Shown here: positions 3,280 to 23,644 of the stretch, one piece after another
Layout of the letters: the number at the start of each line of letters is the position of its first letter
Position numbering within the stretch: the first letter of the stretch is position 1
DNA from: an uncultured Acidimicrobiia bacterium
GTDB lineage: Bacteria; Actinomycetota; Acidimicrobiia; Acidimicrobiales; JAHEJN01
Reading direction: 5' to 3'
Length of the DNA stretch: 64,000 bases
Assembly (NCBI GenBank): GCA_964196475.1
Contig: CAXMUI010000026.1
Coordinates: forward strand, 1,058-65,057
Program-made: the position numbers and the translations under genes
Notes under the pieces: generated by a model
What the model saw: only the letters and a program-made list of their open reading frames with translations
What the model was told of the DNA's origin: nothing
The model's database searches: none

Positions 3280-4242
3280 TCAATGCGCAGGGAGAGTCCC
3301 CAATGACTGAGCACCAACTGATGGATCCAGATTCGCCGATGACCGAAGTTCCTGGAGCCTGCTTCGGAGAAGGTCGGCCGATGACCCTTCTAGCTGCCAA
3401 TCGATTCGGATAGCGGTGGTTGCCCGCTCGATGTCGTGGTCCGCAAGCTGTAACGCGTTGACATAGACCAAAACGTCGAAACTGTTGAGATTGTTTATGC
3501 GGTCGGGTTCGTCGAAATACAGCTCTACCTCCCCGCGAAAGACTGTGTGCACTAGCCCGGCGATGCGTTCAGCGCCGCCAGAGTTTGTTGCGGCGACAGT
3601 TATCACTCGGTCGGGCGAAAGGGTCGCGATCTGGCGAAGGGTTTTTGAGGAAGCGCCGAAGTTGAGCTCGAGAATCCTCGACTCGTCGCCGGTCACCTCA
3701 AGGATCTCAGCGAAGTGAAACAAGGGTGTGACGATCAGGTCGTAATGCTCGGTCGCATCCTTGCTCGCAAGATCCCCGATTAGTACGGGTTCGAGCTTTG
3801 CGCCGGTGGCATTAGCAATGAGAGCGGTCATTTGCGTCAGGTCGGTTATGTTGCACTCGGCGAAGGCAACCGTTTGTTCAAAAGAGCCAAACGCAGTAGT
3901 GACGAGTCCAATGACGTCTTCTAGTGCAAGCCCTATCGCTCTGGCCCGGCGAGCGAGACCCTCGACCTCTTCATGTAGCCCGGTATTCAGAATTGCAGCA
4001 CCGCTCGTGCCGGTGACATAGGTGCCTCTCCGGGGTTCGGATCGGACGAGTCCTTCGGTGGCCAGGCGCTGAAGTTCGCGGTTTACCGTGTTCGCGTTAC
4101 TACCCAATTCGTCAGCGATTTGGCGACACGACGGCAGTCGCTCGCCCGGTTGCCATGATCCGTTCAAGATTCTTCGTAGTACCTCGCGACGGACTTCTTC
4201 GCCATTTACACCGGTTTTGTTGTTCGGGGGCATTGACATCAC
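3280..4242 (-). CDS. GntR-family transcriptional regulator
   Basis: N-terminal winged HTH (LPSCRQIADELGSNANTVNRELQRLATEGLVRSEPRRGTYV). Divergent from the ABC transporter operon. The ~230 aa C-terminal effector domain was not recognised. Confidence 0.8.
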   Translation of the reverse strand: MMSMPPNNKTGVNGEEVRREVLRRILNGSWQPGERLPSCRQIADELGSNANTVNRELQRLATEGLVRSEPRRGTYVTGTSGAAILNTGLHEEVEGLARRARAIGLALEDVIGLVTTAFGSFEQTVAFAECNITDLTQMTALIANATGAKLEPVLIGDLASKDATEHYDLIVTPLFHFAEILEVTGDESRILELNFGASSKTLRQIATLSPDRVITVAATNSGGAERIAGLVHTVFRGEVELYFDEPDRINNLNSFDVLVYVNALQLADHDIERATTAIRIDWQLEGSSADLLRSRLQELRSSANLDPSVGAQSLGTLPAH

Positions 4243-4297
4243 CTTGACGACTGTTGAGTGTTGTTGCCGACCACAGTGGCCCGGCCCGGCATTAACT

Positions 4298-4312
4298 GAT
4301 CATTTTATGATC
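4298..4312. promoter_or_regulatory. candidate operator: perfect 6-3-6 inverted repeat GATCAT-TTT-ATGATC in the GntR/ABC divergent promoter
   Basis: Read directly from the sequence. It lies in an AT-rich patch of the 219-bp divergent intergenic region (4243-4461). Confidence 0.3.
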
Positions 4313-4461
4313 CACAAGACGAGCATAGGTGGCCCCGAGACGAATCTGAAGGTTGATGACAATTTAACGTTTATGGACAAACCACTTGCCGAAGATGTAA
4401 CACGTGGCTACGGTGAGGGTACTGTCACTTACAGAGAGACAGATATCGCTAGGGGAATTCT

Positions 4462-5457
4462 ATGAAGAAGACACTGCTAATGCTGCTCGCCATACTGGGA
4501 GTGTTCGCACTCCTAGCTGGTGCATGTGGCTCAGACGATGACGACGGGGCTGATGGGCTTCGTGTTGCTTTGGTCCTGCCCGGCTCGGCGAACGACAAGG
4601 GCTTTAACCAGCTCGCGTTCGAGTCTCTACCGATTCTTGAGGCCAAATTTGGAGCGGAGACAGCGTTCTCCGAGTTGACGCCGGTCAATGAATTTGTCCA
4701 GGCGTTTGAGGATTACGCGAACGATGGCTATGACGTCGTAATCGGGCAGGGATTCGAGTTTGGTGAGATTGCGGCCGAGGTCGCTCCCGAATTCCCTGAC
4801 ACGATCTTCCTCGTGACAAACCATCCCGATACCTCCGGGCCAAATATGCAGGGGCTCCAGCCCGCATCCCAACATGCTGCGTTCCTGGCCGGTGTGGCTG
4901 CAGGCATGGCAACGGAAACGAACAAGGTCGGCGGCATCGCCGGATTCGCATTCCCAGTAATCGTTGCCCAGATGGAGGCCTTCGCACTCGGGGCCAAGTC
5001 GGTCAATCCCGACATTGAGGCGACAATCACCTACCTCGGAACGTTCGACGACGTTGAGGCCGGCAAGGAGACCGCCCGCGCGATGATTTCAGCTGACGTC
5101 GATGTCGTCTACCACATCGCTGATGCTGCTGGTCTCGGAGTAATCCAGGCCGCTCGAGAAGAGGGTGTCTACGCAATTGGCTGGGGTGGTGACCAAACCG
5201 AGGTCGCTCCCGAAACGGTCCTTACATCACAGATCGTCGATCAGACGCTCCTAATTGTCGAGGCAATCCAGTCGGTCGTCGATGGGACGTTCGAAGGCCA
5301 GCAGCGTTTCTTCAGCCTGGCTTCACCAGTGCTGGGGTTGGCCCCGATTCGTGTGATCGACAACGCAGCTGAAATCGAGGCGAGAGTTGCAGAGGTCGAG
5401 GCCGGAATCCTCGATGGCTCGATCGAGGTTCCGTTCATCACTGAGCCAACAAGTTAA
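4462..5457 (+). CDS. BMP-family (PnrA/Med-like) ABC transporter substrate-binding lipoprotein
   Basis: Lipoprotein signal MKKTLLMLLAILGVFALLAGAC. LVLPGSANDKGFNQ, GYDVVIGQGFEF and GGIAGFAFPVI segments are typical of basic-membrane-protein nucleoside binders. RBS AGGGGA lies upstream. Confidence 0.85.
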   Translation: MKKTLLMLLAILGVFALLAGACGSDDDDGADGLRVALVLPGSANDKGFNQLAFESLPILEAKFGAETAFSELTPVNEFVQAFEDYANDGYDVVIGQGFEFGEIAAEVAPEFPDTIFLVTNHPDTSGPNMQGLQPASQHAAFLAGVAAGMATETNKVGGIAGFAFPVIVAQMEAFALGAKSVNPDIEATITYLGTFDDVEAGKETARAMISADVDVVYHIADAAGLGVIQAAREEGVYAIGWGGDQTEVAPETVLTSQIVDQTLLIVEAIQSVVDGTFEGQQRFFSLASPVLGLAPIRVIDNAAEIEARVAEVEAGILDGSIEVPFITEPTS

Positions 5458-5475
5458 TCCAAGCGAGCCGTACAG

Positions 5476-7005
5476 ATGGGACCCCCGCCGAAGCCCGCGC
5501 CCGGGTCCCATCTGCTCGCGCTCGCCGACATCTGGAAACGTTATGACGCCACGGTCGCGCTAAGCGGCGCATCACTCGAAATCGAGCGGGGCGAAATCCA
5601 TGCCCTTCTCGGCGAGAACGGTGCCGGCAAGACAACGTTGATGAATGTCCTCGATGGCATCACGCTGCCGGACTCGGGCACCATCACCTGGTCGGACACT
5701 GAGGTGGAAATCGACTCGCCGAAGAGCGCGGTGAGCCTCGGCATTGGCATGGTCCATCAGCACGATCGGCTGGTCCCGGCCCTTACGGTGTGGGAGAACA
5801 TTGCACTCGCCGTCGGTACGTCTTTTAAAATCTCGCGAGACGAGATCGCCGAACATCTCGCCGAACTGACCGAACGTTATGGCGGCGTTATCAATCCGGA
5901 TGCACTCGTCAGCGATCTGTCTGTGGGGGAACGGCAATGGGTAAGCCTTCTCCGAGCGTTGGCGGGAGAGGTCAAGTTGCTGGTGCTCGACGAGCCCACG
6001 TCGACGCTGACCCCAATTGAACGAGATCGCTTGTTCGTAGCCCTGCGGCACTATCGGGCGGCTGGGCTGAGTGTGATCTTCATTACCCACAAGCTCGATG
6101 AGGTCTTCGCCCTTTGCGACCGGGTCACGGTGATGCGCGGAGGAGAAACGGTGTCTACGTTTGACGTTGCATCGACTACCCACGCGCAGTTGGTGCAGTC
6201 GATGGTTGGCCGGGCAGTGGACACAGACTTCGACCGCGCTCCATCGGAGCGTGGCGAAATTCTCCTGCAAGTCGAGTCGCTGTCGGTGCAAGGAGCACGA
6301 CAAACGATTGTGAACCTAGATCTCGAGGTGTCCCGAGGAGAGGTAGTCGGTATCGCCGGTGTTGATGGCAACGGCCAAGGGGAACTGATCGAAGTGATCT
6401 GCGGTGTCCGAGAGGCCGCTGCAGGTGCGGTGACGTTCGGAGATGAACACCACGGCTGGCACAATGGGCGAGCGGCATCGGTGGCCCGAATCCCCGAAGA
6501 TCGCCATCGGCATGGTCTCGCGTTGGGGCTGCCACTCTGGGAGAACGTTCACCTTGGGCGATTCCGAAATCGAGGACTCGTCCGCAATGGCTTCCTGAAT
6601 AGCCGGCGTGCCTATGAGGCGTCAGAAGCCATGCTCGAGGCATTCGATGTGCGCTGCAGCAGCCCAGATCAACCGTCTGGTGAGCTGTCCGGAGGCAATC
6701 AGCAAAAGGCCGTGCTGGCTCGTGAGCTAAGCGATGATCCGGACCTCGTTGTCGCTATGAATCCGTGTCGAGGACTTGATATCGGCGCGGCCAGATTTGT
6801 TTTGGATCAGCTTGTCGCCGTGCGCGACAGAGACGGCGGCGTCTTGTTCGTCTCCTATGACCTTGACGAGATACTCGCCATATCCGATCGGATCCTCGTT
6901 ATGGCCTCAGGCCGGATCGCTGGTGAGCTCAAGCCAGGGCCCGACGTTATTGAACAAATCGGTCTACTAATGGGTGGGGCAGAAATTGGAGTGAAGGCGC
7001 AGTGA
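5476..7005 (+). CDS. ABC transporter ATP-binding protein, duplicated ATPase cassette
   Basis: 509 aa. Walker A GENGAGKTT, signature LSVGERQ, Walker B LLVLDEPT. The second cassette has LSGGNQQK. Confidence 0.9.
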   Translation: MGPPPKPAPGSHLLALADIWKRYDATVALSGASLEIERGEIHALLGENGAGKTTLMNVLDGITLPDSGTITWSDTEVEIDSPKSAVSLGIGMVHQHDRLVPALTVWENIALAVGTSFKISRDEIAEHLAELTERYGGVINPDALVSDLSVGERQWVSLLRALAGEVKLLVLDEPTSTLTPIERDRLFVALRHYRAAGLSVIFITHKLDEVFALCDRVTVMRGGETVSTFDVASTTHAQLVQSMVGRAVDTDFDRAPSERGEILLQVESLSVQGARQTIVNLDLEVSRGEVVGIAGVDGNGQGELIEVICGVREAAAGAVTFGDEHHGWHNGRAASVARIPEDRHRHGLALGLPLWENVHLGRFRNRGLVRNGFLNSRRAYEASEAMLEAFDVRCSSPDQPSGELSGGNQQKAVLARELSDDPDLVVAMNPCRGLDIGAARFVLDQLVAVRDRDGGVLFVSYDLDEILAISDRILVMASGRIAGELKPGPDVIEQIGLLMGGAEIGVKAQ

Positions 7006-8099
7006 CTTCAAAACGCGACGCGTTGGGTTTGGTGTTGCTCGGACGAGAGTCGTTCGTCGTCAGCGCGGTAATCATTCTCGGACTCTTGCTGTCCCTCGTC
7101 ATGCTGGCCGTTACGGGAGCCGACCTGGGCGAAGCGCTCCCGGCCCTGCTATCTGGCTCAGTCGGCGATGCTCGGGCGATCGAGGAGACGCTCAGCCAGT
7201 CGGTGCCGATCATGTTCGTCGGGTTGGGTGTAGCGGTCGGCCTTCGTGCGGGACTGTTTAACATCGGTGGCGAAGGACAGATTTATGTGGCGGCGCTAGC
7301 CGGGATTGTGGTGTCGCAATGGCTGCCAGTCGACGTGCCGGTTCTCGCCGTGGCGTTGCTGTTGGTCGTCGGGTTCATCGCGGGCGGCATTTGGGCCGCC
7401 GCTGCTGGTTGGATGCGAGCGTACTTGCACATGAATGAGGTCATAACGACGATCTTGTTGAATGGCATCGGCTTCCTGCTCGCAAGCTGGGCCATCCACG
7501 GTCCACTTCGAGATCGAGATGGAGGCGGATTTCCGTGGTCGGAGAAGATCGGTGAGCCCTTCCGCTTGCCCATACTCGACATCGGCCCGCTGACTATGCC
7601 CTCCGGGTTCCTATTGGCCTTGTGCGCTGCGGTCATCGTCTGGATCTTTCTTGACAAAACGGTGATCGGTGTTGAGCTACGAACCCTGGGCGACAACCGA
7701 GATGCCGCCGCTTACGCCGGCGCCCGGGTTCCGTTGCTCGTCATCGTTGCCATGGGTTGTGCCGGTGCGTTGGCCGGGATCGCTGGCGTTGTTGAACTAT
7801 CAGGTAGTCAGGAGCGACTTAGCGATTTCTTCTCTCCTGGATACGGCTTCACTGCTATCGCCGTTGCCCTCGTAGGAAATGCGCGAGCGGGCGGGGTTGT
7901 GCTTGCCGCACTGTTCTTTGGGGCGCTGACCGCTGGAGCGTCTTCGATGGAGCGCATCGCTCAAGTGCCCGCGTCGACGAGTCTGGTCGCCCAGGCAATC
8001 ATCGTCGCGCTTCTGGTCGTCGCCCGGTCAGAACGTCTCGGGCGCTGGGTTCGCGCCCGCCGGCAACTGGCCGCTGCCCTTGATGGGCAGGTGACATGA
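7002..8099 (+). CDS. ABC transporter permease (BMP/ribose-type)
   Basis: 365 aa polytopic hydrophobic protein. Its GTG start overlaps the upstream stop (GTGA). Confidence 0.85.
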   Translation: MTSKRDALGLVLLGRESFVVSAVIILGLLLSLVMLAVTGADLGEALPALLSGSVGDARAIEETLSQSVPIMFVGLGVAVGLRAGLFNIGGEGQIYVAALAGIVVSQWLPVDVPVLAVALLLVVGFIAGGIWAAAAGWMRAYLHMNEVITTILLNGIGFLLASWAIHGPLRDRDGGGFPWSEKIGEPFRLPILDIGPLTMPSGFLLALCAAVIVWIFLDKTVIGVELRTLGDNRDAAAYAGARVPLLVIVAMGCAGALAGIAGVVELSGSQERLSDFFSPGYGFTAIAVALVGNARAGGVVLAALFFGALTAGASSMERIAQVPASTSLVAQAIIVALLVVARSERLGRWVRARRQLAAALDGQVT

Positions 8100-9031
8100 T
8101 GGACGCGCTGATCGAACTCTTCATCTCGACGGCATTCGTCGCCAGCACGCTGCGACTTGCGGTCCCACTCATGCTGGCCGCTACTGGCGAGGTCATTTCC
8201 GAACGAGCCGGAATCCTGAACATCGGGCTTGAGGGAATGATGTTGATGGGGGCGTTTACCGCAGTCATCGGCGCTGATTTGACCGGGAGTCCGTGGCTGG
8301 GAGCGATCGCAGGTGCGGCCGGGGGAGCAGCGCTGGCATCAATCCACGGCGTAATCGTGATCAGGTGGGCCGGCGATCAAGTTGTAAGCGGGCTCGCTCT
8401 AAACCTCGGTGCGCTTGGGCTTACCACGTACCTGTCTCGCAAGATTCTGGGTACCGAGCAGACCGAGGTCGCACACTTTGAACCGGTAAATATCCCAATC
8501 TTGTCGGATCTGCCATTCTTCGGGCCCACTGTCTTCGGGCAATCCCCGTTCTTCTACTTCGCGATAGCTATGGCCGGCATGTTGAGTTGGGTTCTGTTCC
8601 GTACGCGTCTTGGCCTCGCGTGGCGGTCGGCGGGCGAAGATCCTGACGCCCTCGACAGCGTCGGCGTGTCGGTCGCTCGTACACGCTGGACGGCACTGCT
8701 GGTGTGCGGCGCGATGGCCGGCCTGGGCGGAGCCTCGATATCGTTGGCACAGCTGTTCACTTTCATCGAGAACATGACCGGCGGCAGTGGCTTCATCGCC
8801 CTGGCATTGGTGATCGTGACTAGGTGGCGTCCGCTGTGGGCTGTGGGTGTTGCCACCTTCTTCGCGAGTGCCGACGCATTGGCGCTCAGGATCCAAGCAC
8901 TTGACGTCGTCGATATACCGTTCCAGATCTCGCTCATGATTCCGCTCGTGCTGACCCTCGTCATGTACGGATTCGCGGCACGCGCTGGCCGCTCGCCGGC
9001 GGCACTCGGCCGTTCGTGGCTTAAGTCCTGA
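8096..9031 (+). CDS. ABC transporter permease (second subunit)
   Basis: 311 aa polytopic protein joined to the upstream permease by an ATGA overlap. Confidence 0.85.
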   Translation: MMDALIELFISTAFVASTLRLAVPLMLAATGEVISERAGILNIGLEGMMLMGAFTAVIGADLTGSPWLGAIAGAAGGAALASIHGVIVIRWAGDQVVSGLALNLGALGLTTYLSRKILGTEQTEVAHFEPVNIPILSDLPFFGPTVFGQSPFFYFAIAMAGMLSWVLFRTRLGLAWRSAGEDPDALDSVGVSVARTRWTALLVCGAMAGLGGASISLAQLFTFIENMTGGSGFIALALVIVTRWRPLWAVGVATFFASADALALRIQALDVVDIPFQISLMIPLVLTLVMYGFAARAGRSPAALGRSWLKS

Positions 9032-9044
9032 TCGGAGCGCTTGC

Positions 9045-10076
9045 TTGCTCGTATTTGCTTCCGAGGCCCATCGCCTGCACAACCCCACCGAGCCGCACCT
9101 CTTCGCGGGGATTGCTCAACCGCCCCGCGAGAACGTTGAGCGCGCCGACGTGATCCGAGAGGCGGTGCAGTCGCTGGTCACGCAAGACATCCGCGAACCC
9201 GCGCCGATCGATCTCGACCTGCTTGGGCAAGTGCACCAACTTCCGTACCTCGAGTTTCTTCGCACAGCTCATGCCAACTGGTGTGCGCTGGTCGGCAACG
9301 ATGGAAGTGGTGAGGCGATGCCATTTGTGCGGCCGATGCTCGGGTCGCCGTTCACCGCCTCAGATCACGTGCTGGCCCAGATGGGCCGATATTCGAACGA
9401 CGCCGATCCTATTCTCGCTGGGACGTGGGAAGCGGTGAACGCGGGAGCGGCATGCGCGGCCAGCGCCGCGGCGGCCGTGCTATCGGGCACTGCGGAGGCC
9501 GCATATGCGCTGGTCCGACCCCCGGGCCATCATGCCGGGCCCGAAACCTATGGTGGTTACTGCTATCTCAACAACACCGCCATCGCAGCTCAGTTGGCTT
9601 CAGATGCCGGCGGACGCGTCGCGACCCTTGACGTCGACACCCATGCCGGCAACGGAACTCAAGCGGTATTTTGGGAGCGCTCCGACGTGATGTCGGTGTC
9701 TCTACACGTTGATCCTGCGGTTGAGTACCCCTACTTTCAAGGCCACGCCCACGAACACGGTGCTGGCGCGGGGGAGGGGTTCAACCGAAACTTTCCTATG
9801 GCAAAGGGCACCGACTGGTCTGGGTACGAACCCGTGCTCGATGCAGCTTGCGAAGCGGTCACCGAATTCGGCGCAGAAGTGGTCATCGTGGCCCTGGGTG
9901 TCGACACCGCAGTCGAAGACGGTGTGTTGGCCTTGGCCGGAGACGACTACAGACGACTCGGAGCACGACTTGCACGGATCGGTCGACCAACCGTGCTCGT
10001 GCAAGAGGGTGGCTACGACCTGTCGGTGTTGGGGCGAAACGTCGCCGCTGTTCTTGAGGGCTTCGAAGCTGTCTGA
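9045..10076 (+). CDS. histone-deacetylase-family Zn amidohydrolase (acetylpolyamine/acetoin-utilisation type)
   Basis: RPPGHHAGPETYGGYCYLNN and LDVDTHAGNGTQ motifs of arginase/HDAC-fold deacetylases. TTG start with GGAGC RBS at 9034. Confidence 0.8.
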   Translation: MLVFASEAHRLHNPTEPHLFAGIAQPPRENVERADVIREAVQSLVTQDIREPAPIDLDLLGQVHQLPYLEFLRTAHANWCALVGNDGSGEAMPFVRPMLGSPFTASDHVLAQMGRYSNDADPILAGTWEAVNAGAACAASAAAAVLSGTAEAAYALVRPPGHHAGPETYGGYCYLNNTAIAAQLASDAGGRVATLDVDTHAGNGTQAVFWERSDVMSVSLHVDPAVEYPYFQGHAHEHGAGAGEGFNRNFPMAKGTDWSGYEPVLDAACEAVTEFGAEVVIVALGVDTAVEDGVLALAGDDYRRLGARLARIGRPTVLVQEGGYDLSVLGRNVAAVLEGFEAV

Positions 10077-10079
10077 GAG

Positions 10080-11459: not shown

Positions 11460-11568
11460 AGCCTACCGTGTTGGTGCGTTCTGTTCCTGCATGTCGATAC
11501 GGGTGCCAAGATTTGGGCCCGATCGACCGAGATGATTGCACTTGCGAGTGTCAGCCAGAGCCGATAAG

Positions 11569-11604
11569 GTGACTGTGTCACTCTGCTTGGGACAGGTGAC
11601 AGTG
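11569..11604. promoter_or_regulatory. candidate operator array: GTGAC-TGT-GTCAC palindrome plus a third GTGAC half-site
   Basis: Read in the divergent intergenic region 11460-11646. The sequence is GGTGACTGTGTCACTCTGCTTGGGACAGGTGACAGTG, which contains GT..AC-type half-sites of the kind GntR regulators use. Confidence 0.3.
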
Positions 11605-11646
11605 AAGATATTTAAATCGACCACAGCCCTAATTGGAGAGAACGAC

Positions 11647-13257: not shown

Positions 13258-13258
13258 T

Positions 13259-14014
13259 ATGGAAATGCCATGGGACGACGTCGTCTCAGATGAGGATCGC
13301 GAGATATTCGATATAGCTGGCTGGGGTAAGCGTGCTGGCTTCGGCGAGCGGCCTGCATTGCTGGTGATTGACGTCAACTACAACTTTTGCGGAGACAAGG
13401 AAGAGCCGGCTCTCGACTCGATCAAGAAGTGGCGCTACGCCTGCGGTCCGCAGGCGTGGCACACAGGGATTCCAGCGATTCAGCGAGTGCTGTCCGCTGG
13501 ACGAGCCAAGCGCCTGCCGGTGATTTACACCACCAACCCGCGACGCGACGATGGCTTCGACCTTGGTATCTGGACCCTTAAGAGCCACCGCTCCGACGAT
13601 GTTGTCGATGTCAGTGGCCACAAAGGCAACGACATCGTCGACGAGGTCAGCCCGGCTGAAGGCGACCTCTTCATAGAGAAGTGCAAGCCATCAGCGTTCT
13701 TCGGAACGACCCTTATGAGCCACCTCAACAATCTGCGGGCCGACTCGCTGATCGTGATGGGCACTACAACTAGCGGTTGTGTCCGGGCAACAGCAGTCGA
13801 CGCGCTATCCTTTGACATCAAGGTGACGATTCCGCACGAGACGGCGTTTGATCGTTCGCAGTTGTCGCACAAGGTCGCCTTGATGGATCTGCACATGAAG
13901 TACGTCGATGTCACCGATACAGACGATGTTGTCAATTATCTGGATTCGCTCGACACTGGCATATTTGACGAAGTCTGGCCCCCGGCGGCCAAGGCTGCGA
14001 AGGTCTCCGCATGA
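13259..14014 (+). CDS. isochorismatase-family cysteine hydrolase (RutB / N-carbamoylsarcosine-amidase-like)
   Basis: Start trimmed to the ATG at 13259 (MEMPWDD...). PALLVIDVNYNF supplies the Asp, EKCKPSAFF the Lys and GTTTSGCVRATAVDA the nucleophile Cys. Confidence 0.8.
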   Translation: MEMPWDDVVSDEDREIFDIAGWGKRAGFGERPALLVIDVNYNFCGDKEEPALDSIKKWRYACGPQAWHTGIPAIQRVLSAGRAKRLPVIYTTNPRRDDGFDLGIWTLKSHRSDDVVDVSGHKGNDIVDEVSPAEGDLFIEKCKPSAFFGTTLMSHLNNLRADSLIVMGTTTSGCVRATAVDALSFDIKVTIPHETAFDRSQLSHKVALMDLHMKYVDVTDTDDVVNYLDSLDTGIFDEVWPPAAKAAKVSA

Positions 14015-14586
14015 GCATTGTCATCCGCAGTTGGAGAGTTCAGATAACCGAGCAGCTTGTTGCTGAAGGAATCGAAGCCGAGACCCCATTACGCAAGGTC
14101 GTCGTTGCTGCCGTCATCGAGAACCCGTTTCTCGGGGGATACGTCGAAGATTTGTCCGAGGCGGTCGAATGGTCGGTTGGCTTCGGCTCAGACATCGGGC
14201 AGCGCGCAGTTGAGGCACTCGGCGAACCTGTGCAGGCCTATGGCAAGGGCGGAATCGCGGGCACGTCCGGTACGCAGGAACACGTGGTCGCGTTTGTGAC
14301 AACGCCATTCGGCAACGCTTTTCGCGATGCCGTGGGTGGTGGTGCGGCGTGGATCTCATCTGCGTCGATCTCCGGCTCAGCCGGGACGCCGCTCACGCTT
14401 CCGCTGGCAAACAAAGACGCTCTATTCGTTCGTGACAACTATGACGCTGTCACGCTATATCCCGGTGACGCACCGCGGCCCGACGAGATCGTCGTCGCTG
14501 TCGCAGTAGCTAATCGGGGTCGACTTAACGCCCGGCTCGGGGGCCTTGCGGCCAACGATCTTGTCGGGGAGGATGGGCTTTGGTGA
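14011..14586 (+). CDS. 'amino acid synthesis' family protein (PF06684/DUF1185-like), function unknown
   Basis: 191 aa. The pattern PLRKVVVAAVIENPF...AYGKGGIAGTSGTQEH...PLANKDALFVRDNYDA matches my recollection of the AA_synth family. ATGA overlap with the upstream gene. Confidence 0.65.
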   Translation: MSIVIRSWRVQITEQLVAEGIEAETPLRKVVVAAVIENPFLGGYVEDLSEAVEWSVGFGSDIGQRAVEALGEPVQAYGKGGIAGTSGTQEHVVAFVTTPFGNAFRDAVGGGAAWISSASISGSAGTPLTLPLANKDALFVRDNYDAVTLYPGDAPRPDEIVVAVAVANRGRLNARLGGLAANDLVGEDGLW

Positions 14587-14608
14587 CCACGGCTTTTAGG
14601 GAGACAAG

Positions 14609-15637
14609 ATGACCCAGTTAAACAAAGATGACCGACTGGCCGATTCGGCCTCAAAGATCAAAGCGCCCTTCACGGTTGATCCGACCATGCGGTTCTACTC
14701 TCCGCAGGAAAACGTCGACGCATTTGACCACCCTCGTGTAGCGCCCTACCTCGATTGGATCGCTAATAAATGGGAACCCCCCTCCGGGTCACCGAGGTTG
14801 GCACTCATTATTCCCTGCACCAAGTCAAAGCCGTATTCCACCAGCCGTGAGCACCGGAGCATCAATGGTGCCTTGCTCGATGCTGGTTGGGAGCCCGAAG
14901 GTACGGGCAAGCCGCCGGAGGGTCTCTACGACGCTATCGACGAAGGTGATGATCCTCGACTGCTCGATCTCAGCACAATGACCCGCAATGGTGTATCGCT
15001 CGATCGCATCGTGGTGTCGGAGCCGCTCGGTCTCGTGCCGTACACCGATGTGTACTCCTGGCAGGATGGCCCAAGCCCGGCGTCGGGATATGACGATCCT
15101 GGGTTGTTCGAATCTCGTGGTACTTCGGTGTCACCTTGGCGGGCCGATCACAGCGCTACACAGAACGCATCGGGCAAATGGACCTGGGGCCCTGCGGAAC
15201 GTGAGGCCTACGTCAGTGCCCACAACACTCTCGTCGACGTGATTCATACGACGCTGACCCGTGTGCGTGATCGTTACCTGGGTGTGGCTGCCTGGACATC
15301 GCCGGGCCTCACCCACCGAAGCTTCTTGATGGGCGAAGATCAGCGTCGCGCCGAGGGACTACCGCTTACTAGGCAGGGCACGACGGGTCCCTGCGCTTTG
15401 CGTGGAGTGTCGGATCTCACCCCGGGCCTGGTTGATATCTTGCCGACCACCGATCAGCTCAAGCAGTCGCGTGTCGATCTCGCGAAACGCCTGAAGAGCG
15501 AAGGCAGGACGCACTCTCCCGGGGCAGTCCGTGCCGTGTACGCCCGCGGCGACGGTCACGACACCCCGCTTGGGCTGCCAGAACTGCTTACCAATCTCAT
15601 GGCCTGGATCGACGAGCGGGCCAGCAGCGGCGCATGA
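14609..15637 (+). CDS. conserved hypothetical protein with ArcS/DUF5591 signature motif
   Basis: 342 aa with RBS GGGAGA upstream. Residues 69-82 read PCTKSKPYSTSREH, an exact match to PC-X3-KPY-X2-S-X2-H (nt 14813-14854). Confidence 0.7.
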   Translation: MTQLNKDDRLADSASKIKAPFTVDPTMRFYSPQENVDAFDHPRVAPYLDWIANKWEPPSGSPRLALIIPCTKSKPYSTSREHRSINGALLDAGWEPEGTGKPPEGLYDAIDEGDDPRLLDLSTMTRNGVSLDRIVVSEPLGLVPYTDVYSWQDGPSPASGYDDPGLFESRGTSVSPWRADHSATQNASGKWTWGPAEREAYVSAHNTLVDVIHTTLTRVRDRYLGVAAWTSPGLTHRSFLMGEDQRRAEGLPLTRQGTTGPCALRGVSDLTPGLVDILPTTDQLKQSRVDLAKRLKSEGRTHSPGAVRAVYARGDGHDTPLGLPELLTNLMAWIDERASSGA

Positions 15638-16839
15638 CCGACCATCCACACGGTCCCACAACAGCGATCGTCAATATTGGCACGCTCTTAACTGGAGATG
15701 TCGCAGAACCCCACGGCACCGCCGACTCGATCCTTATCGAAGAGGGCCTCATAACTGAACTGGGCGGCGTCGACGCGGCTCGGGCCGAACGAGTGATCAA
15801 CGTCGGCGGGGCCACGGTCGCGCCCGGCTTGATTGACTCCCACTGCCACGTTGTGCTGGGTGACTACACGCCTCGCCAACGAGCGATCGGGTTCCTCGAG
15901 TCCTACGTGCACGGCGGGATCACCTCATGTATCTCGCCGGGTGAAATTCACCTACCGGGACGACCTCATGATGCCGCAGGGGTCAAAGCCCTGGCGGTCC
16001 TCGCTCAACGGTCTTGGGCCAACTATCGACCCAACGGTATGAAGGTGCACGGTGGAGCAATCATCCTCGAACCGGTTCTGACCCGGTCTGATTTCGACGA
16101 AGTGGTTGCCGAAGGCGTCTGGTTGGCCAAATTCGGCTTCGGACTCTACGACGACCCCGCCGATGGTCTACAGCAAGTACGAGACGCGAAAGCGGCTGGC
16201 ATAAAGGTGATGGCGCACAGCGGTGGCGCTTCAATTCCAGGCTCAAAGCCAATTACCGCCGATCACCTCATGCTGCTGCAGCCTGATGTATGCGGTCACG
16301 TCAACGGTGGCCCCAGCTCGCTCGACGACGAAAAGCTTGATGTCCTTGTTCGCGAGACCGACCTCATACTTCAGCTAGTACAGGCTGGCAACCTCCGGTC
16401 GTCGTTGCGCATTATCGACACGGTGCGCGACATTGGAGCCGAACACCGGGTGATCATCGGGTCCGACACGCCAACCGGAACCGGCGTGATGCCTCTCGGA
16501 ATGATCAAAACCGTCGCCGAGCTTGCGTCGTTGGGTAATGTCGATCCCGGACTCGTTTGGGCTTGGGCATCCGGCGCTATCGCCGACGTATACGACCTGC
16601 CGACTGGCAAGATCGAGATAGGCCGCCAGGCCGACCTCGTTGTGGCCGACGCGCCATGGGGTTCTCACGGCGTGGGAGCGGTCGGCGCCCTTGCTCGCGG
16701 CGATATTCCTGGTATCAGTGCCGTGCTTATCGATGGAGAAGTACGAGCGCTCACTAGCCGCAATACACCAGCATCTGCTACACCCGTGGTGGTCGATCCG
16801 CACATGGATGACCCTTGCGGGTCTGAGCACGTGTGTTGA
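15634..16839 (+). CDS. metal-dependent amidohydrolase (enamidase / EF_0837-like subgroup)
   Basis: 401 aa. APGLIDSHCHVVLGDY (HxH), VMAHSGG and a C-terminal GKIEIGRQADLVV beta-sandwich closure. ATGA overlap with the upstream gene. Confidence 0.75.
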   Translation: MTDHPHGPTTAIVNIGTLLTGDVAEPHGTADSILIEEGLITELGGVDAARAERVINVGGATVAPGLIDSHCHVVLGDYTPRQRAIGFLESYVHGGITSCISPGEIHLPGRPHDAAGVKALAVLAQRSWANYRPNGMKVHGGAIILEPVLTRSDFDEVVAEGVWLAKFGFGLYDDPADGLQQVRDAKAAGIKVMAHSGGASIPGSKPITADHLMLLQPDVCGHVNGGPSSLDDEKLDVLVRETDLILQLVQAGNLRSSLRIIDTVRDIGAEHRVIIGSDTPTGTGVMPLGMIKTVAELASLGNVDPGLVWAWASGAIADVYDLPTGKIEIGRQADLVVADAPWGSHGVGAVGALARGDIPGISAVLIDGEVRALTSRNTPASATPVVVDPHMDDPCGSEHVC

Positions 16840-16865
16840 GATCCAATTCCAACTAAAGGACTGTG

Positions 16866-17471
16866 ATGGAAAACGTTGTCGAGGAAGTGCTCGTGCCAGC
16901 CTCTGAAGGGCGCGGAATCCGAGTCAAAGCGGGGCAGATACTTGACATCGTTGATGTCGAGGGTCATCAGGTTGGCGACCTTGTCGCCTACGTCGAAGCA
17001 GATCCGACCGAGTATCTCTCGCCGACCCATACGGTTTCGTGCAATCAGTCGGTGCAGTTGACTACGGGTTCAGAGGTGTTCACGAACCATCGGAACCCGA
17101 TCTTCACCATCGAACGCGATGATGTCGAAAAGCACGACATCATCGTCCCATGTTGTGACTATGAGCGATTCTTTCGTGATTACGGCCTCACCGACCACAG
17201 GCATTGCCTTGGCAATCTTGAGCAAGCTCGTGACCTGCTGGGTGTCGATTATGAGCTTCACGGAGAGCAGGCGTGGAACGTCTTCATGCACAATCGGGTC
17301 ACCGATGATGGCGCTGTGCTAACCGACCCGGCTGCCCACGAGGCTGGAGCCACGATCTCGCTGCGCGCCCACGTCGATTTGGTTGCGTTGCTCTCCGCGT
17401 GTCCCCAAGATCTGACTCCCTGCAACGACTTTAATTGCACACCAATGTTGTTGCGCGTGCGCGACGCATGA
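16866..17471 (+). CDS. DUF1989 (urea-carboxylase-associated / carboxyguanidine-deiminase-like) family protein
   Basis: VPASEGRGIRVKAGQILDIVDVEGHQVGDLVAY...HDIIVPCCD...HRHCLGNL...LLSACPQD matches the DUF1989 pattern. The ORF track starts at GTG 16863; I prefer the ATG at 16866. Confidence 0.8.
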   Translation: MENVVEEVLVPASEGRGIRVKAGQILDIVDVEGHQVGDLVAYVEADPTEYLSPTHTVSCNQSVQLTTGSEVFTNHRNPIFTIERDDVEKHDIIVPCCDYERFFRDYGLTDHRHCLGNLEQARDLLGVDYELHGEQAWNVFMHNRVTDDGAVLTDPAAHEAGATISLRAHVDLVALLSACPQDLTPCNDFNCTPMLLRVRDA

Positions 17472-18151
17472 CCGCCAGAGACCTTGCTAACGAGGTCGCG
17501 CACACGGCTCGCATGCTGGCCGCCGCTGGCTTGGTCGAGGCGTTTGGACACGTTTCAGCGCGGCGACCGGACGGCGGATTTCTTATCACCCCGACATCGC
17601 CACTCCATGAGGCCACCGCAGCCTCGATCATCACCGTTGATGACGACGGTGTCGTCGTAGACGATCCAAGTTCGGCCGCACCGATCGAGATCCCGCTTCA
17701 CACCGCGGTGTATCAAGCACGCCCCGATGTTGTAGCGATTTGCAGAGGGCATGGTCCATCCATGGTCGCCTGGGGTGTATCGCTCGATGATGTGCCACTG
17801 CTGCACGGCCTTGGGGCCATCGCCGGCGAGACCATCCCGGTGCATAACGACCTCGATTTAATCTCTTCTCCGGAGGCCGGTGATCGTGCAGCCCGAACCC
17901 TCTCCGACAACCATGCGGCCCTTCTGCTCGCAAATGGCGGCTTCGCCGTAGGTGCCAGCCTCCTGGAGGCGGCGACCCGCTTGTGGTTTACCGAAGAGCG
18001 TGCAACGGTTGCGCTCGCGGCCCGCACTGTCGAGCCGCCTGTCGGCGACTGGGGGCATCGGCTGACTCACAGCCGTATCGAACTCATTCGGGCCGAGGCC
18101 TGGTTCTCATCCCGTTTCACGTATTTAGCATCAACTACATCTCAGGAGTAA
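17468..18151 (+). CDS. class II aldolase/adducin-domain protein (aldolase or decarboxylase)
   Basis: Start trimmed to the ATG at 17468 (ATGA overlap). AAAGLVEAFGHVSARRPDGGFLITP and LHTAVYQARPDVVAICRGHG are typical class II aldolase segments. Confidence 0.8.
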   Translation: MTARDLANEVAHTARMLAAAGLVEAFGHVSARRPDGGFLITPTSPLHEATAASIITVDDDGVVVDDPSSAAPIEIPLHTAVYQARPDVVAICRGHGPSMVAWGVSLDDVPLLHGLGAIAGETIPVHNDLDLISSPEAGDRAARTLSDNHAALLLANGGFAVGASLLEAATRLWFTEERATVALAARTVEPPVGDWGHRLTHSRIELIRAEAWFSSRFTYLASTTSQE

Positions 18152-18153
18152 AC

Positions 18154-19443
18154 ATGGGACTCGAACGCCCCGAACCCGGTTCATCAATGAACGAAGCGGA
18201 GATGGAGTCTTACCGCGACGGGTTCATGGCGCACCTCGCCCAGACCGTGCCGGGACGCAAGGAACTCGTGGTCGAACAGGCACGAGGCTGCACGATCAAG
18301 ATGGCCGACGGTCACCTATATCTCGATTTCATCTCCGGTATCGCAGTCGCCAATATTGGCCACAGCCATCCGAAGGTCGTGGCCGCGGTGCAGGAACAGA
18401 TGGCCAACTACGCCCACGTAAATGTGTATGGCCGTTTTGCCCTCCCGCCGCAGGTGGAGATTGCCGAGCGGTTAGCACGAGTTGCTCCGGGCGATCTCGA
18501 TGTGGCCTTCCTCACCTCGACAGGCACCGAGGCCATCGAGGGCTCACTCAAACTGGCGCGCAAATACACCGGACGAAAACGATTCATCGCGTTTGAACGA
18601 GGATTCCATGGGCGTACTTTCGGGGCGTTGTCGGTGAGCTGGAAGCTGGCATACCGCGAGCCGTTCGAACCCCTCCTCGAAGGCGTTGACTTCGTTCCTT
18701 TCGACGATCTAGACGCCGTTGCCGCGATCATCGGCGACGACACAGCGGCCGTCATTATCGAGCCCATTCAGGGCGAAGGTGGCGTCCGCGTGCCCAGCGA
18801 CGACTTTCTTCCTGGACTTCGCAAGCTCTGCGACGACGCAGGAGCGCTGCTCATCTTCGATGAGGTGCAAGGAGCGATGGGCCGTACAGGTCATTGGTTC
18901 TCGTTCCAGTTATGGGATGTTGTCCCCGACATCGTCGTTTTGGCGAAGGCCTTCGGTGGCGGGCTCCCACTCGGAGCGTTTCTGTCGACAAGCGACATCT
19001 TCTCCACGTTCCTCGATCCGCCGTTGTCGCATCTGACCACGTTCGGTGGTAATCCAGTGGCCTGTGCTGCGGCTGTTGCGGCCTTCGACGTTATTGAGGA
19101 GGAAGATCTTCTCGCAGCGGCGCAACAAAAGGGAATCGAACTCAAGCGTCGCCTCGAGACGACAATGGAGCAGTTCCCGGAGTTCATCTCTGATGTGCGC
19201 GGCCGTGGCCTTTGGTTGGCTATCGACCTCCCACCAGATCTCAGTATGCCGATCGTGCGCGAGATGGAACGTCGCGGGGTCATCGTTGGAGCGATGTTGA
19301 GTTCTGACGGCACCGTGAGGATCGCCCCGCCCCTCACCGTCGCCGAGGCGGAACTCGATGTCTTCATCGGCGTACTCCGGGCATCGCTTCTCGCCGCTCG
19401 GGCCGGCAAACTCCCGGAACAGGCAGACGAAACAGACACGTAG
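18154..19443 (+). CDS. class III PLP aminotransferase (omega-amino acid / acetylornithine type)
   Basis: Start trimmed to the ATG at 18154 with an AGGAG RBS at 18144. LIFDEVQGAMGRTGHWF and the Schiff-base region DIVVLAKAFGGGLP are present. Confidence 0.85.
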   Translation: MGLERPEPGSSMNEAEMESYRDGFMAHLAQTVPGRKELVVEQARGCTIKMADGHLYLDFISGIAVANIGHSHPKVVAAVQEQMANYAHVNVYGRFALPPQVEIAERLARVAPGDLDVAFLTSTGTEAIEGSLKLARKYTGRKRFIAFERGFHGRTFGALSVSWKLAYREPFEPLLEGVDFVPFDDLDAVAAIIGDDTAAVIIEPIQGEGGVRVPSDDFLPGLRKLCDDAGALLIFDEVQGAMGRTGHWFSFQLWDVVPDIVVLAKAFGGGLPLGAFLSTSDIFSTFLDPPLSHLTTFGGNPVACAAAVAAFDVIEEEDLLAAAQQKGIELKRRLETTMEQFPEFISDVRGRGLWLAIDLPPDLSMPIVREMERRGVIVGAMLSSDGTVRIAPPLTVAEAELDVFIGVLRASLLAARAGKLPEQADETDT

Positions 19444-23220: not shown

Positions 23221-23631
23221 ATGGGCGCTACGAACTCATCCACTTGCCAGGAGACACCCATGGAACGCGGAAATCAGCCATCAAACACACCAGGATCATC
23301 TACCCCCGGTGAGGGGCCAACCACTGACCCTGCCGCAACCGGCGGAGCGGGTGGCGGAGCATCCACCGTCGGGGGTGCTGATGAGCCTGAGGTCAGTTGG
23401 GACGATATTGACTTTGACCAAGTGGAAGAGGGACCTGATGGCAACTTGCGAGCCCCATTCGTAGATCCCGATTCGGGTGAAATTGTAGGTTGGGCGGAGG
23501 CAACAGTAACAGAGGGTGGGGGCGGCGCTCTCGGGCCGGACGATTTCCATATGCAAGACACGGCTGACGGAATCATTATTCGGCGTGGCGACGGCACGTG
23601 GAGCTTGGATCCGTACCCGAGCGCCGAATGA
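23221..23631 (+). CDS. small acidic hypothetical protein
   Basis: 136 aa with a Gly/Pro/Thr-rich N-terminus and an acidic C-terminal domain. Ends 13 nt before the next gene. No family recognised. An alternative start is the ATG at 23260. Confidence 0.5.
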   Translation: MGATNSSTCQETPMERGNQPSNTPGSSTPGEGPTTDPAATGGAGGGASTVGGADEPEVSWDDIDFDQVEEGPDGNLRAPFVDPDSGEIVGWAEATVTEGGGGALGPDDFHMQDTADGIIIRRGDGTWSLDPYPSAE

Positions 23632-23644
23632 CAAGGGTCGAGTA

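Follow-up and report, generated by a model that had tools for sequence, protein, structure and literature searches.

A stretch of 64,000 nucleotides (nt) from an uncultured Acidimicrobiia bacterium (contig CAXMUI010000026.1 of assembly GCA_964196475.1), referred to as the window, was analysed around a gene island located between positions 3280 and 19443. The island is composed of 15 open reading frames (ORFs), arranged as two divergent pairs: the gene for a GntR-family regulator faces away from a transporter unit, which runs from the gene for a BMP-family binding protein (Bmp) to that for an HDAC-fold deacylase, and the gene for a TRZ/ATZ-type aminohydrolase (TRZ) faces away from an operon of eight genes, extending from 11647 to 19443. 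Intergenic gaps range between -4 and 23 nt within the operon, and between -4 and 18 nt within the transporter unit. Gene families were assigned by using Pfam, NCBIfam equivalog cut-offs and sequence searches against the PDB; the starts of five genes were corrected, the original list being over-extended at the 5' end. A first-pass annotation, made from the sequence alone, had described 15 consecutive genes in two divergent units and a tightly coupled eight-gene operon; its coordinates, its layout and all the families it had named were confirmed by the analysis. None of the 15 proteins reached an NCBIfam equivalog cut-off, so that all assignments are at the level of the family.

A comparative set of 80 genome loci was obtained by anchoring on the gene for the ArcS-motif protein, the rarest of the island, and by searching 10-kb flanks by tblastn with the window proteins. 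Within this distance of the anchor, the partners found are TRZ (61 of the 80 loci), the class III aminotransferase (54), DUF1989 (46), the enamidase-like amidohydrolase (44), the class II aldolase-fold protein (Aldolase_II, 42), the hydantoinase-like and isochorismatase-like hydrolases (39 each), PF06684 (38), GntR (28), HDAC (16) and Bmp (15). The genes flanking the island in the window, coding for a PfkB kinase, a sulfatase and an E1-like protein, are present in none of the 80 loci.

The eight-gene block singled out by the first-pass annotation is thus conserved: together with TRZ and the same type of GntR it is found again, with its genes rearranged, in Acidimicrobiia, Actinocorallia and Chloroflexi. 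Each of four sets of hosts, namely the Acidimicrobiia related to the window, the sponge-associated Spongiisociaceae, Actinocorallia and Chloroflexi, has a gene arrangement of its own, and three sub-blocks are kept intact in all of them: hydantoinase-like/isochorismatase-like/PF06684, enamidase-like/DUF1989, and ArcS-like/(aldehyde dehydrogenase)/(decarboxylase)/aminotransferase. As to the regulator and transporter that travel with the block, these are the GntR type already mentioned and the importer of the BMP-type ATP-binding cassette (BMP-ABC) family, whose orthologues, 50-82% identical, lie beside it in two phyla (Acidimicrobiia and Chloroflexi). The ArcS-anchored cluster was found in nearly all the sponge-associated Acidimicrobiia sampled. 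Since the partners recur in shuffled order and the flanking genes never do, the limits of the island were set at 3280-19443 and its genes were taken as functionally linked; very probably they form one catabolic island, dedicated to an amino-substituted N-heterocycle.

Table 1. Features of the island, and groups of related loci considered in the text
Feature	Position or loci	Strand	Evidence or remark
GntR-family regulator, N-terminal winged helix and C-terminal domain of ~230 aa	3280-4242	-	Pfam GntR 60.6 bits, residues 15-76 only
BMP-family lipoprotein, substrate-binding protein of the ABC importer	4462-5457	+	Pfam Bmp 203 bits; lipobox LLAGACGS
Double ABC ATPase	5476-7005	+	Pfam ABC_tran, two domains; 4-nt overlap with next gene
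Permease 1	7002-8099	+	Pfam BPD_transp_2 132 bits
Permease 2	8096-9031	+	Pfam BPD_transp_2 121 bits
HDAC-fold deacylase, acetylpolyamine-amidohydrolase-like	9045-10076	+	Pfam Hist_deacetyl 201 bits
TRZ/ATZ-type (cog0402-like) aminohydrolase	10080-11459	-	Pfam Amidohydro_1 186 bits
Cyclic amidohydrolase, L-hydantoinase/dihydropyrimidinase-like	11647-13257	+	PDB 1gkr, E 4e-49
Isochorismatase-fold cysteine hydrolase	13259-14014	+	Pfam Isochorismatase 92 bits
PF06684 (AA_synth/DUF1185) protein	14011-14586	+	Pfam 183 bits
Stand-alone ArcS-core-like protein	14609-15637	+	Pfam DUF5591 28.2 bits, motif region
Enamidase-like amidohydrolase (second Amidohydro_1)	15634-16839	+	PDB enamidase 2vun, E 1e-103
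DUF1989 protein	16863-17471	+	Pfam 139 bits
Class II aldolase-fold protein	17468-18151	+	Pfam Aldolase_II 101 bits
Class III aminotransferase, ArgD/putrescine-aminotransferase-like	18154-19443	+	Pfam Aminotran_3 366 bits
Candidate operator TGTCTCTCTG, abutting TGTCAC	4422-4441	-	~20-40 nt upstream of the Bmp ATG
26-bp palindrome TGTCACTCTGCTTGGGACAGGTGACA, candidate GntR operator	11576-11601		~45 nt upstream of the eight-gene operon
TGTCNCTCTG site	4432-4441		Upstream of Bmp
TGTCNCTCTG site	11440-11449	+	At the TRZ 5' end
TGTCNCTCTG site	11576-11585		Upstream of the operon
'NMT1-like' decarboxylase homologue	L035, L038, L040, L041, L065, L066, L068, L069, L073, L076, L078, L079		e.g. L068:13789-14763
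PF10343 within the supercluster (related Actinomycetota)	L035, L038, L040, L061, L083, L084, L086, L088, L089, L090

On the upstream side the island is preceded by genes for a PfkB-family sugar kinase and a choline-sulfatase-like sulfatase (320 bits, cut-off 433), located at 386-2811 on the minus strand and overlapping by 4 nt. Directly downstream, and convergent with the operon, lies the gene for a transketolase/PDH-E1-like protein of 783 amino acids (aa; 19505-21856, minus strand), which scores 214-215 bits against AceE/AKGDH equivalog cut-offs of 860-1408. It is followed by two plus-strand ORFs with no Pfam match, at 22118-23131 (337 aa, with a weak hint of a BGTF surface domain) and 23516-26083 (855 aa).

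The 28 GntR genes scored above correspond to full-length orthologues, 27-40% identical to that of the window and of the same architecture, from Actinomycetes and Chloroflexi clusters. Their C-terminal domain has no Pfam, NCBIfam or PDB match, PDB matches being confined to the helix-turn-helix, and the regulator may represent a new effector-domain subfamily. A candidate operator was found by aligning the TRZ/operon intergenic regions of the window and of its five closest relatives; an inverted-repeat search with the default seed had missed it. In loci L001-L006 the palindrome, TGTCACyCTG-N6-ACAGrTGACA, has been retained ahead of the hydantoinase-like gene. Its half-site, the 10-mer TGTCNCTCTG, occurs three times in the 64 kb, always within the two regulatory regions of the island (Table 1), against 0.5 copies expected; three copies were reached by 1 of 100 shuffles, a statistic that is indicative only, since the motif was derived in part from the same sequences. 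Across the 80 loci its density is 0.137 per kb in intergenic and 0.032 per kb in coding DNA, and repeats related to it stand in front of the leading genes of operons of the cluster in Nocardioides, Mycolicibacterium, Herbiconiux and Microbacterium. This distribution is consistent with one regulon under the conserved GntR.

Related direct repeats, TGTCCCTCTGaCCCTCTGtgTGTAACA, were also seen upstream of importer genes in the Nocardioides and Mycolicibacterium loci. A 12-mer, CTGTCACTTRCA, present in two copies, was discarded as weak: one of the copies falls in the start of the TRZ coding sequence and 7 of 100 shuffles matched it. Scans for sigma-70 promoters and terminators gave counts no higher than those of shuffled sequences, and were uninformative.

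The protein on which the loci were anchored (342 aa) contains the complete motif PC-X3-KPY-X2-S-X2-H of ArcS, in the segment IIPCTKSKPYSTSREH, and residues P69, C70, K74, P75, Y76, S79 and H82 are invariant in 56 homologues, which are otherwise 52-86% identical. Its match to DUF5591 (PF17884) lies just above the cut-off of 26 bits and spans only positions 3-44 of the 150 of the profile. The ArcS equivalog test failed (26-27 bits against NCBIfam cut-offs of 440 and 600), and neither TGT-like or PUA domains nor any second Pfam domain were found. Because both the equivalog and the domain-architecture tests failed, the protein was not called an ArcS; it is best seen as a distinct branch that carries the ArcS catalytic core.

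The ability of the protein to adopt the corresponding fold was analysed on an AlphaFold2 model (pLDDT 94.7, pTM 0.92). The best match, within BFVD, is the DUF5591/ArcS2 protein of Vibrio phage nt-1 (probability 1.00, TM 0.51 on the target, E 1.6e-3), an enzyme shown experimentally to yield dG+ when dPreQ0 is present (PMC10516641). Within the PDB the only fold match is AF0587, an ArcS C-terminal-like protein that shares the motif and is also recovered by profile search; it is a modest match, limited to the core (probability 0.90, TM 0.26-0.32). A profile search of 1.84 billion representative proteins delineated a compact ArcS-like family of 180 matches, mostly fragments, outside of which only longer proteins match, and only in the motif region. 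The enzyme is predicted to depend on Cys and to attack the carbon of a nitrile or amidine, probably on the free base and not on tRNA or DNA. Two apparent fusions, P0248 (730 aa, LacI and ArcS-like) and P0302 (706 aa, with low-complexity sequence), look like frameshifted metagenomic gene calls and do not count as Rosetta-stone evidence.

The remaining enzymes of the operon fall in part into pairs and triads. The hydantoinase-like protein scores 190 bits against the cut-off of 393 of the NCBIfam D-hydantoinase model (TIGR02033). Its conservation is unusually high, at 77-88% identity across classes of Actinomycetota (87-88% to the proteins of L001-L005, 77-81% to those of Spongiisociaceae and Actinocorallia), and 60-64% identity is found with Chloroflexi. 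The residues D62-S-E64-A-H66 are invariant in 38 orthologues, with ExH at the place of the expected HxH metal motif; the call was judged by position and suggests an unusual metal site. The protein is the predicted ring-opening enzyme. Its gene is invariably adjoined in related loci by the isochorismatase-like gene, whose product is closest in the PDB to N-carbamoylsarcosine amidohydrolase (1nba, E 2e-30) and to an isochorismatase-family hydrolase (4l07, E 1e-28) and is predicted to remove a ureido or carbamoyl group. With PF06684 the two genes make up a triad in 38 of the 80 loci. PF06684 proteins have a chorismate-mutase-like fold and unknown function (PMC2954203); an enamine- or imine-handling step is predicted here.

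The enamidase-like gene always has DUF1989 as its neighbour. A homologue search with the former yielded at least 7924 matches and, among the matches listed, close orthologues only; the enzyme would open a remaining cyclic enamide or lactam. The DUF1989 protein scores 110 bits against 285 for UAAP2 and 71 against 206 for UAAP1 in NCBIfam, and a deiminase-type step may be assigned to it. The class II aldolase-fold protein has 3,4-dihydroxyphthalate decarboxylase as its best NCBIfam match and Mlr6791, a decarboxylase of the vitamin B6 pathway (2z7b, E 2.5e-14), as its best PDB match, and is predicted to be a non-oxidative decarboxylase of a hydroxy/oxo-(hetero)aromatic carboxylate. The aminotransferase (402 bits for acetylornithine transaminase, cut-off 457) is expected to convert a primary amine into an aldehyde.

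Outside the operon, the HDAC-fold deacylase has no NCBIfam match and is closest to acetylpolyamine amidohydrolases of the PDB (9gkz, E 3.5e-85; 6phr, E 6e-73); its homologues, 34-70% identical, are in several of the 16 positive loci directly beside the ArcS-like gene. Release of a primary amine from an N-acyl substrate is predicted. For TRZ, whose best NCBIfam matches are all below cut-off, the PDB gives MTA/SAH deaminase (4f0r, E 6e-56) and 8-oxoguanine deaminase (7ww2, E 1e-49), pointing to deamination of an exocyclic amine of the heterocycle.

Further genes of the cluster were identified from Pfam gene calls at one Microbacterium and one Actinocorallia locus, and then by tblastn. Most relatives add an aldehyde dehydrogenase (40 loci), a CrtI-like FAD oxidoreductase (41), an O-methyltransferase (39) and a CN-hydrolase (21), together with a second TRZ paralogue and a NitT/TauT-like ABC importer (about 28 loci), whose binding protein (in Actinocorallia, for instance, L082:4729-5886) has no Pfam match and gave an empty PDB search. 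By its gene content, the window is a reduced version of this larger supercluster. Alphaproteobacteria keep the ArcS-like gene, the aminotransferase, the aldehyde dehydrogenase, the deaminases and sometimes HDAC. To these, Kaistia, Parvibaculum, Maritimibacter, Pseudooceanicola and Ciceribacter (L065, L066, L068, L069, L076 and L078) add HpaB, a flavin reductase, a flavin monooxygenase and an amidase, as well as two polysaccharide-deacetylase-type hydrolases, an asparaginase, a CobW GTPase and an arylmalonate-decarboxylase/racemase-like protein. The HpaB set seems to be an oxidative counterpart of the module that opens the ring by hydrolysis.

These additions bear on the possibility that the island consists of two or three unrelated units which happen to be adjacent (importer and deacylase, deaminase, hydrolase operon), or that it is a biosynthetic cluster. 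The type of transporter varies by lineage, the window is devoid of several supercluster genes, the O-methyltransferase and CrtI-like oxidase of the relatives could be tailoring steps, and the promoter and terminator scans do not help to define units. Simple adjacency is contradicted by the recurrence of the same partners across phyla, in shuffled order and never with the flanks, by the presence of the same BMP-ABC orthologues with the block in Acidimicrobiia and Chloroflexi, and by the operator-like motif common to both regulatory regions; importers that depend on binding proteins, together with six hydrolases, speak for breakdown, and a natural-product biosynthetic cluster was rejected on the same grounds. 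Explanations of this kind appear very improbable.

Four types of importer replace one another beside the ArcS-like gene: BMP-ABC, the NitT/TauT-like ABC, an NMT1-type binding protein with an ABC, and an ECF transporter. As the importer changes and the ArcS-like gene stays adjacent, the ArcS-like enzyme is suggested to act early and to define the substrate. The ECF transporter was observed in two metagenome-assembled genomes of Chloroflexia (L064:5399-9905 and L080:212-4667), with an FCD-type GntR, directly upstream of the ArcS-like gene; its parts are a CbiQ-type T component, a double ATPase and a membrane protein of 212 aa with no clear Pfam family, which may be a novel S component.

A cytoplasmic 'NMT1-like' protein of 324 aa, found beside the ArcS-like gene in 13 loci, is instead a homologue of 4,5-dihydroxyphthalate decarboxylase (PDB 9jp7, E 1.3e-50). 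None of these loci is among the 42 that have the class II aldolase-like gene, and this exclusivity looks like non-orthologous displacement; aromatic-acid decarboxylases are the nearest characterised relatives of both. The recurrent order is ArcS-like, aldehyde dehydrogenase, decarboxylase, aminotransferase. From the displacement of the decarboxylase and the adjacency of the other two enzymes we infer a funnel R-CH2NH2 -> R-CHO -> R-COOH -> R-H, operating on a hydroxy/oxo-(hetero)aromatic ring.

The relatives also provide a link to queuosine salvage. In Microbacterium and Nocardioides, genes for a BMP-ABC importer, a queuosine-salvage protein of family PF10343 (152 bits, cut-off 25) and a nucleoside hydrolase are divergent from the ArcS-like operon. 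In a reciprocal test, the PF10343 protein was used as the query and the genomic contexts of the matches were read. At 53% identity or more, PF10343, nucleoside hydrolase and BMP-ABC lie inside the supercluster in 10 of the 10 contexts read (Table 1). In L083 (a contig shared with L017) and L086, PF10343 is directly upstream of, and co-directional with, the hydantoinase-like triad, the order on one strand being BMP-ABC, Q_salvage, nucleoside hydrolase, hydantoinase-like, isochorismatase-like, PF06684, ABC, CN-hydrolase, TRZ and enamidase-like. In L084, L088, L089 and L090 the operon consists of Bmp-ABC, Q_salvage, nucleoside hydrolase and HDAC, followed by GntR in L084 and L088; its neighbours are CN-hydrolase, TRZ, GntR, a decarboxylase-like gene, HpaB and amidase, or else an importer, the ArcS-like gene (57% identity) and aldehyde dehydrogenase.

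Two remoter PF10343 homologues (48% and 43% identity) showed no linkage to the supercluster. Remoter PF10343 genes were observed at L087:7016-13197 and L085:9063-10996, in Bmp-ABC-Q_salvage-MFS-nucleoside hydrolase or PfkB-Q_salvage units with no catabolic genes; these are probably plain salvage units. PF10343 is also absent from the 64-kb window, as checked by tblastn with the Microbacterium protein. The GntR/Bmp-ABC-HDAC unit of the window has the architecture of the queuosine-salvage operons, minus the two nucleoside-cleaving genes. To our knowledge, 7-deazaguanines are the only known substrates of both the ArcS core and PF10343.

The reading that we favour, because a single conserved supercluster brings together the ArcS core and PF10343 and because the other enzymes can be ordered into a full route, is that the island serves the xanthinase-like, hydrolytic catabolism of 7-substituted 7-deazaguanines; it is put forward tentatively, at a little under an even chance. 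The first-pass annotation had mentioned 7-deazapurines among several classes of compound, and the ArcS2 fold match and PF10343 linkage make them the best-supported class of candidate substrates. N-formyl-, N-methyl-, carboxy-, amido- and cyano-substituted 7-deazaguanines are all natural (PMC10516641). The island would act as one GntR-controlled unit, importing an amino-substituted fused N-heterocycle with a one-carbon or aminoalkyl side chain and dismantling it by hydrolysis alone; its likeliest substrates would be preQ1, preQ0, their N-acyl, amide or carboxy forms, or queuine-derived bases.

In such a route the base would be taken up by the BMP-type ABC importer, and in N-acyl-aminomethyl forms the side-chain amine would be freed by the HDAC-fold deacylase. 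The aminomethyl group would be converted into an aldehyde by the class III aminotransferase and then into a carboxylate by the aldehyde dehydrogenase (present in most related loci and not in the window), to be removed by the class II aldolase-fold decarboxylase. Where that carbon is a nitrile or an amidine, the ArcS-like cysteine enzyme would deal with it, and amide forms would go to the CN-hydrolase of the relatives. Removal of the exocyclic 2-amino group by TRZ would give a dione of the 7-deazaxanthine type, whose uracil-type ring could be opened directly by the hydantoinase-like enzyme, as xanthinase does with xanthine. In the xanthinase pathway the uracil ring of a fused heteroaromatic is hydrolysed directly, and further hydrolyses and decarboxylation come afterwards; such an attack is feasible because the five-membered aromatic ring to which the uracil moiety is fused sufficiently reduces its aromatic stabilisation (PMC12507026 and its preprint). 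The isochorismatase-fold hydrolase would then strip the ureido group as NH3 and CO2, PF06684 and DUF1989 would turn the resulting 2-aminopyrrole (an enamine/imine) into a lactam, and the enamidase-like enzyme would convert this cyclic enamide into an aldehyde acid. Starting from 7-deazaguanine the product would be succinate semialdehyde, with all four ring nitrogens leaving as ammonia.

The same enzymes can be arranged around ordinary purines, as a non-clostridial variant of the xanthinase-type, oxygen-independent pathway. TRZ would then be a guanine-type deaminase, the hydantoinase-like enzyme would open xanthine, the isochorismatase-like enzyme would remove the ureido group and the aldolase-fold protein would decarboxylate 4-amino-5-imidazolecarboxylate; DUF1989 or PF06684 would deaminate 4-aminoimidazole, the enamidase-like enzyme would open imidazolone, and the ArcS-like protein would process the amidine formiminoglycine. 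The set fits the described sequence of xanthinase steps, BMP importers and the nucleoside hydrolases of the relatives suit purine nucleosides, TRZ is similar to deaminases of 8-oxoguanine and of the adenosine type, and purines are abundant, as would befit a cluster that nearly all of the sampled sponge-associated Acidimicrobiia have. The distribution of the ArcS-like gene is hard to reconcile with this arrangement. In Microbacterium, Herbiconiux, Mycolicibacterium and Nocardioides the side-chain module is present and the ring-opening module is absent, and the ArcS-like gene occurs without the latter in Alphaproteobacteria too; lying in these lineages beside importers, aldehyde dehydrogenase and aminotransferase, it is not expected to serve a late formiminoglycine step. 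Alphaproteobacteria, moreover, pair it with an HpaB/flavin-reductase/amidase oxidative module, which is not ordinary purine catabolism, and the linkage to queuosine salvage is left unexplained. We consider a purine substrate rather improbable.

The amine-aldehyde-acid-decarboxylation funnel suits any heteroaryl-methylamine, and the substrate could be some other heterocycle or modified base bearing an aminomethyl or amidine group: thiamine pyrimidines (FAMP, 4-amino-5-aminomethyl-2-methylpyrimidine), tRNA bases of the 5-aminomethyl-uracil or lysidine/agmatidine type, pterins, glycocyamidine or hydantoin compounds, or a polyamine-heterocycle conjugate. Elsewhere the BMP importer is replaced by NMT1/ThiY-type binding proteins and by the ECF transporter; the deacylase resembles acetylpolyamine amidohydrolases and the aminotransferase resembles ArgD and putrescine aminotransferase; the isochorismatase-like protein is nearest to N-carbamoylsarcosine amidohydrolase, the ring opener to L-hydantoinase, and the nucleoside hydrolase of the relatives to pyrimidine-preferring enzymes. 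Each candidate, however, leaves several enzymes idle. A monocyclic pyrimidine offers no second ring to the enamidase-like/DUF1989 pair, vitamin B6 or hydantoins do not explain two TRZ deaminases or the ArcS-like enzyme, and none of the candidates accounts for the ArcS core and PF10343 in one supercluster. Catabolism of vitamin B6, considered in view of the Mlr6791-like decarboxylase and of an NCBIfam 'B6' match of Bmp (111 bits, cut-off 400), was rejected, as deaminases, ureide hydrolases and the ArcS-like enzyme are not explained by it. Substrates of this broader group are regarded as unlikely, if still worth keeping in view.

Several observations weigh against the 7-deazaguanine reading itself. 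The window has no queuosine-salvage protein, nucleoside hydrolase, aldehyde dehydrogenase, CN-hydrolase, second deaminase, oxidase or methyltransferase, and its Bmp and HDAC, about 30-35% and 35-40% identical to their counterparts in the queuosine-salvage operons, belong to different subgroups. What ties the protein to ArcS is a stretch of about 60 residues around the motif, plus the modest fold match (TM 0.26-0.51). Among 148 unlabelled neighbouring ORFs searched with Pfam, no additional recurrent family linked to 7-deazaguanines emerged, and an Rfam scan of positions 1-24000 at E<=1 gave no preQ1, purine or other riboswitch, nor any other RNA family. The CrtI-like oxidase and O-methyltransferase of most relatives have no role in the proposed route. 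The aminotransferase is nearest to ArgD, putrescine aminotransferase and LysJ, and the deacylase to acetylpolyamine amidohydrolases, so that aliphatic omega-amines would be no worse a fit than a heteroaryl-methylamine. As nutrients, 7-deazaguanines are scarce in relation to how widely the cluster is distributed, and all reaction assignments are predictions.

7-Deazaguanines are micronutrients of eukaryotes, modifications of tRNA and of phage DNA, and scaffolds of antibiotics; we know of no account of the environmental fate or breakdown of queuine and its relatives. Literature searches on these bases returned salvage and biosynthesis and no breakdown route, and full-text searches found no paper that describes the cluster, in line with the undescribed catabolic route proposed by the first-pass annotation. 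There is a realistic chance that the cluster is the first pathway for 7-deazapurine breakdown. In its fullest form the proposal is that an enzyme with an ArcS core, recruited from tRNA/DNA modification, attacks the C7 nitrile or amidine of the free base; that a Qng1-like protein frees the base in the relatives; that a xanthinase-like cascade leads from 7-deazaxanthine to succinate semialdehyde, CO2 and four ammonia; and that the pathway is spread over sponge-associated Acidimicrobiia, soil Actinomycetes and Chloroflexi, with an HpaB-based oxidative variant in Alphaproteobacteria. Taken as a whole, this scheme is a serious possibility that still falls short of being probable.

If true, it would assign first functions to a branch of ArcS/DUF5591, to PF06684, to a subgroup of DUF1989, to an ExH-type cyclic amidohydrolase and to a GntR subfamily. 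Even with another substrate, a large multi-phylum hydrolytic pathway for N-heterocycles would be missing from current annotation. The cluster is prominent in sponge symbionts, where the recycling of nitrogen from host metabolites is a central theme, and cultured carriers exist, which makes the question of breakdown directly testable. Among them are Actinocorallia aurantiaca JCM 8201, with the full cluster, Microbacterium aquimaris KCTC 19124, with the queuosine-salvage version, Mycolicibacterium austroafricanum DSM 44191, and Maritimibacter alkaliphilus, with the oxidative variant.

The island was compared with the known systems that share some of its families. Like the Pyd, Rut and creatinine routes, it combines a cyclic amidohydrolase (as PydB), an isochorismatase-fold hydrolase (as RutB or N-carbamoylsarcosine amidase) and a chorismate-mutase-like fold (as RutC). 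It holds no PydA reductase, PydC or beta-ureidopropionase family; no RutA, RutF, luciferase-like or flavin-reductase gene (RutB scores 36 bits against a cut-off of 378); no HyuAB, creatininase or sarcosine oxidase, the homologue of the amidase (1nba) being the only element of the creatinine/N-methylhydantoin route; and, with respect to guanidine degradation, one DUF1989 gene and no urea carboxylase. The absence of PydA/PydC, RutA, urea carboxylase and HyuAB from the island had been noted in the first-pass annotation and still stands, the look-alikes scoring far below their cut-offs (RutB as just given, and the D-hydantoinase and UAAP2 models as reported above). With the nicotinate fermentation of Eubacterium barkeri the island shares the homology to enamidase (Table 1); unlike that system it has no genes for nicotinate dehydrogenase, 6-hydroxynicotinate reductase or the downstream mutase, and the partner of the enamidase-like gene is always DUF1989. 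Because the defining enzymes are absent and the scores are below cut-offs, the island is, on its gene content, outside the Pyd, Rut, creatinine and guanidine routes, and probably outside that of nicotinate as well.

In comparison with ArcS and phage ArcS2 (DUF5591, PF17884), the ArcS-like protein has the full catalytic motif and a core fold matching that of phage nt-1 ArcS2; it differs in being stand-alone and bacterial, in its approximately 200 additional residues, and in being encoded in catabolic operons beside importers.

The xanthinase pathway is reportedly dependent on a prenyl-FMN decarboxylase; no UbiD/UbiX Pfam match was found among the 15 island products, which also counts against the purine arrangement, and the candidate decarboxylase of the island is of the class II aldolase fold or, in the relatives, 4,5-dihydroxyphthalate-decarboxylase-like. 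The pathway is known from purinolytic Clostridia and Bacilli (Rabinowitz), and its genes were reported by Tong et al. 2023, according to the passage of PMC12507026 that cites them; the hosts of the island, by contrast, are Acidimicrobiia, Actinomycetes and Chloroflexi. In terms of step logic only, as taken from descriptions in reviews, the two are alike: both would be oxygen-independent, and for direct ring opening, ureido removal, decarboxylation, deamination of the amino-heterocycle and lactam opening the window has one candidate enzyme per step. The ArcS-like protein, the aminotransferase and the deacylase are additions of the island.

Queuosine/queuine salvage, based on Qng1 (PF10343) or on a queuosine hydrolase of the nucleoside-hydrolase type, is paralleled by the operon of PF10343, nucleoside hydrolase and BMP-ABC in the supercluster of related Actinomycetota. 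Salvage reuses the base for tRNA, whereas the neighbours in the supercluster are deaminases and ring-opening hydrolases, which implies that the base is destroyed.

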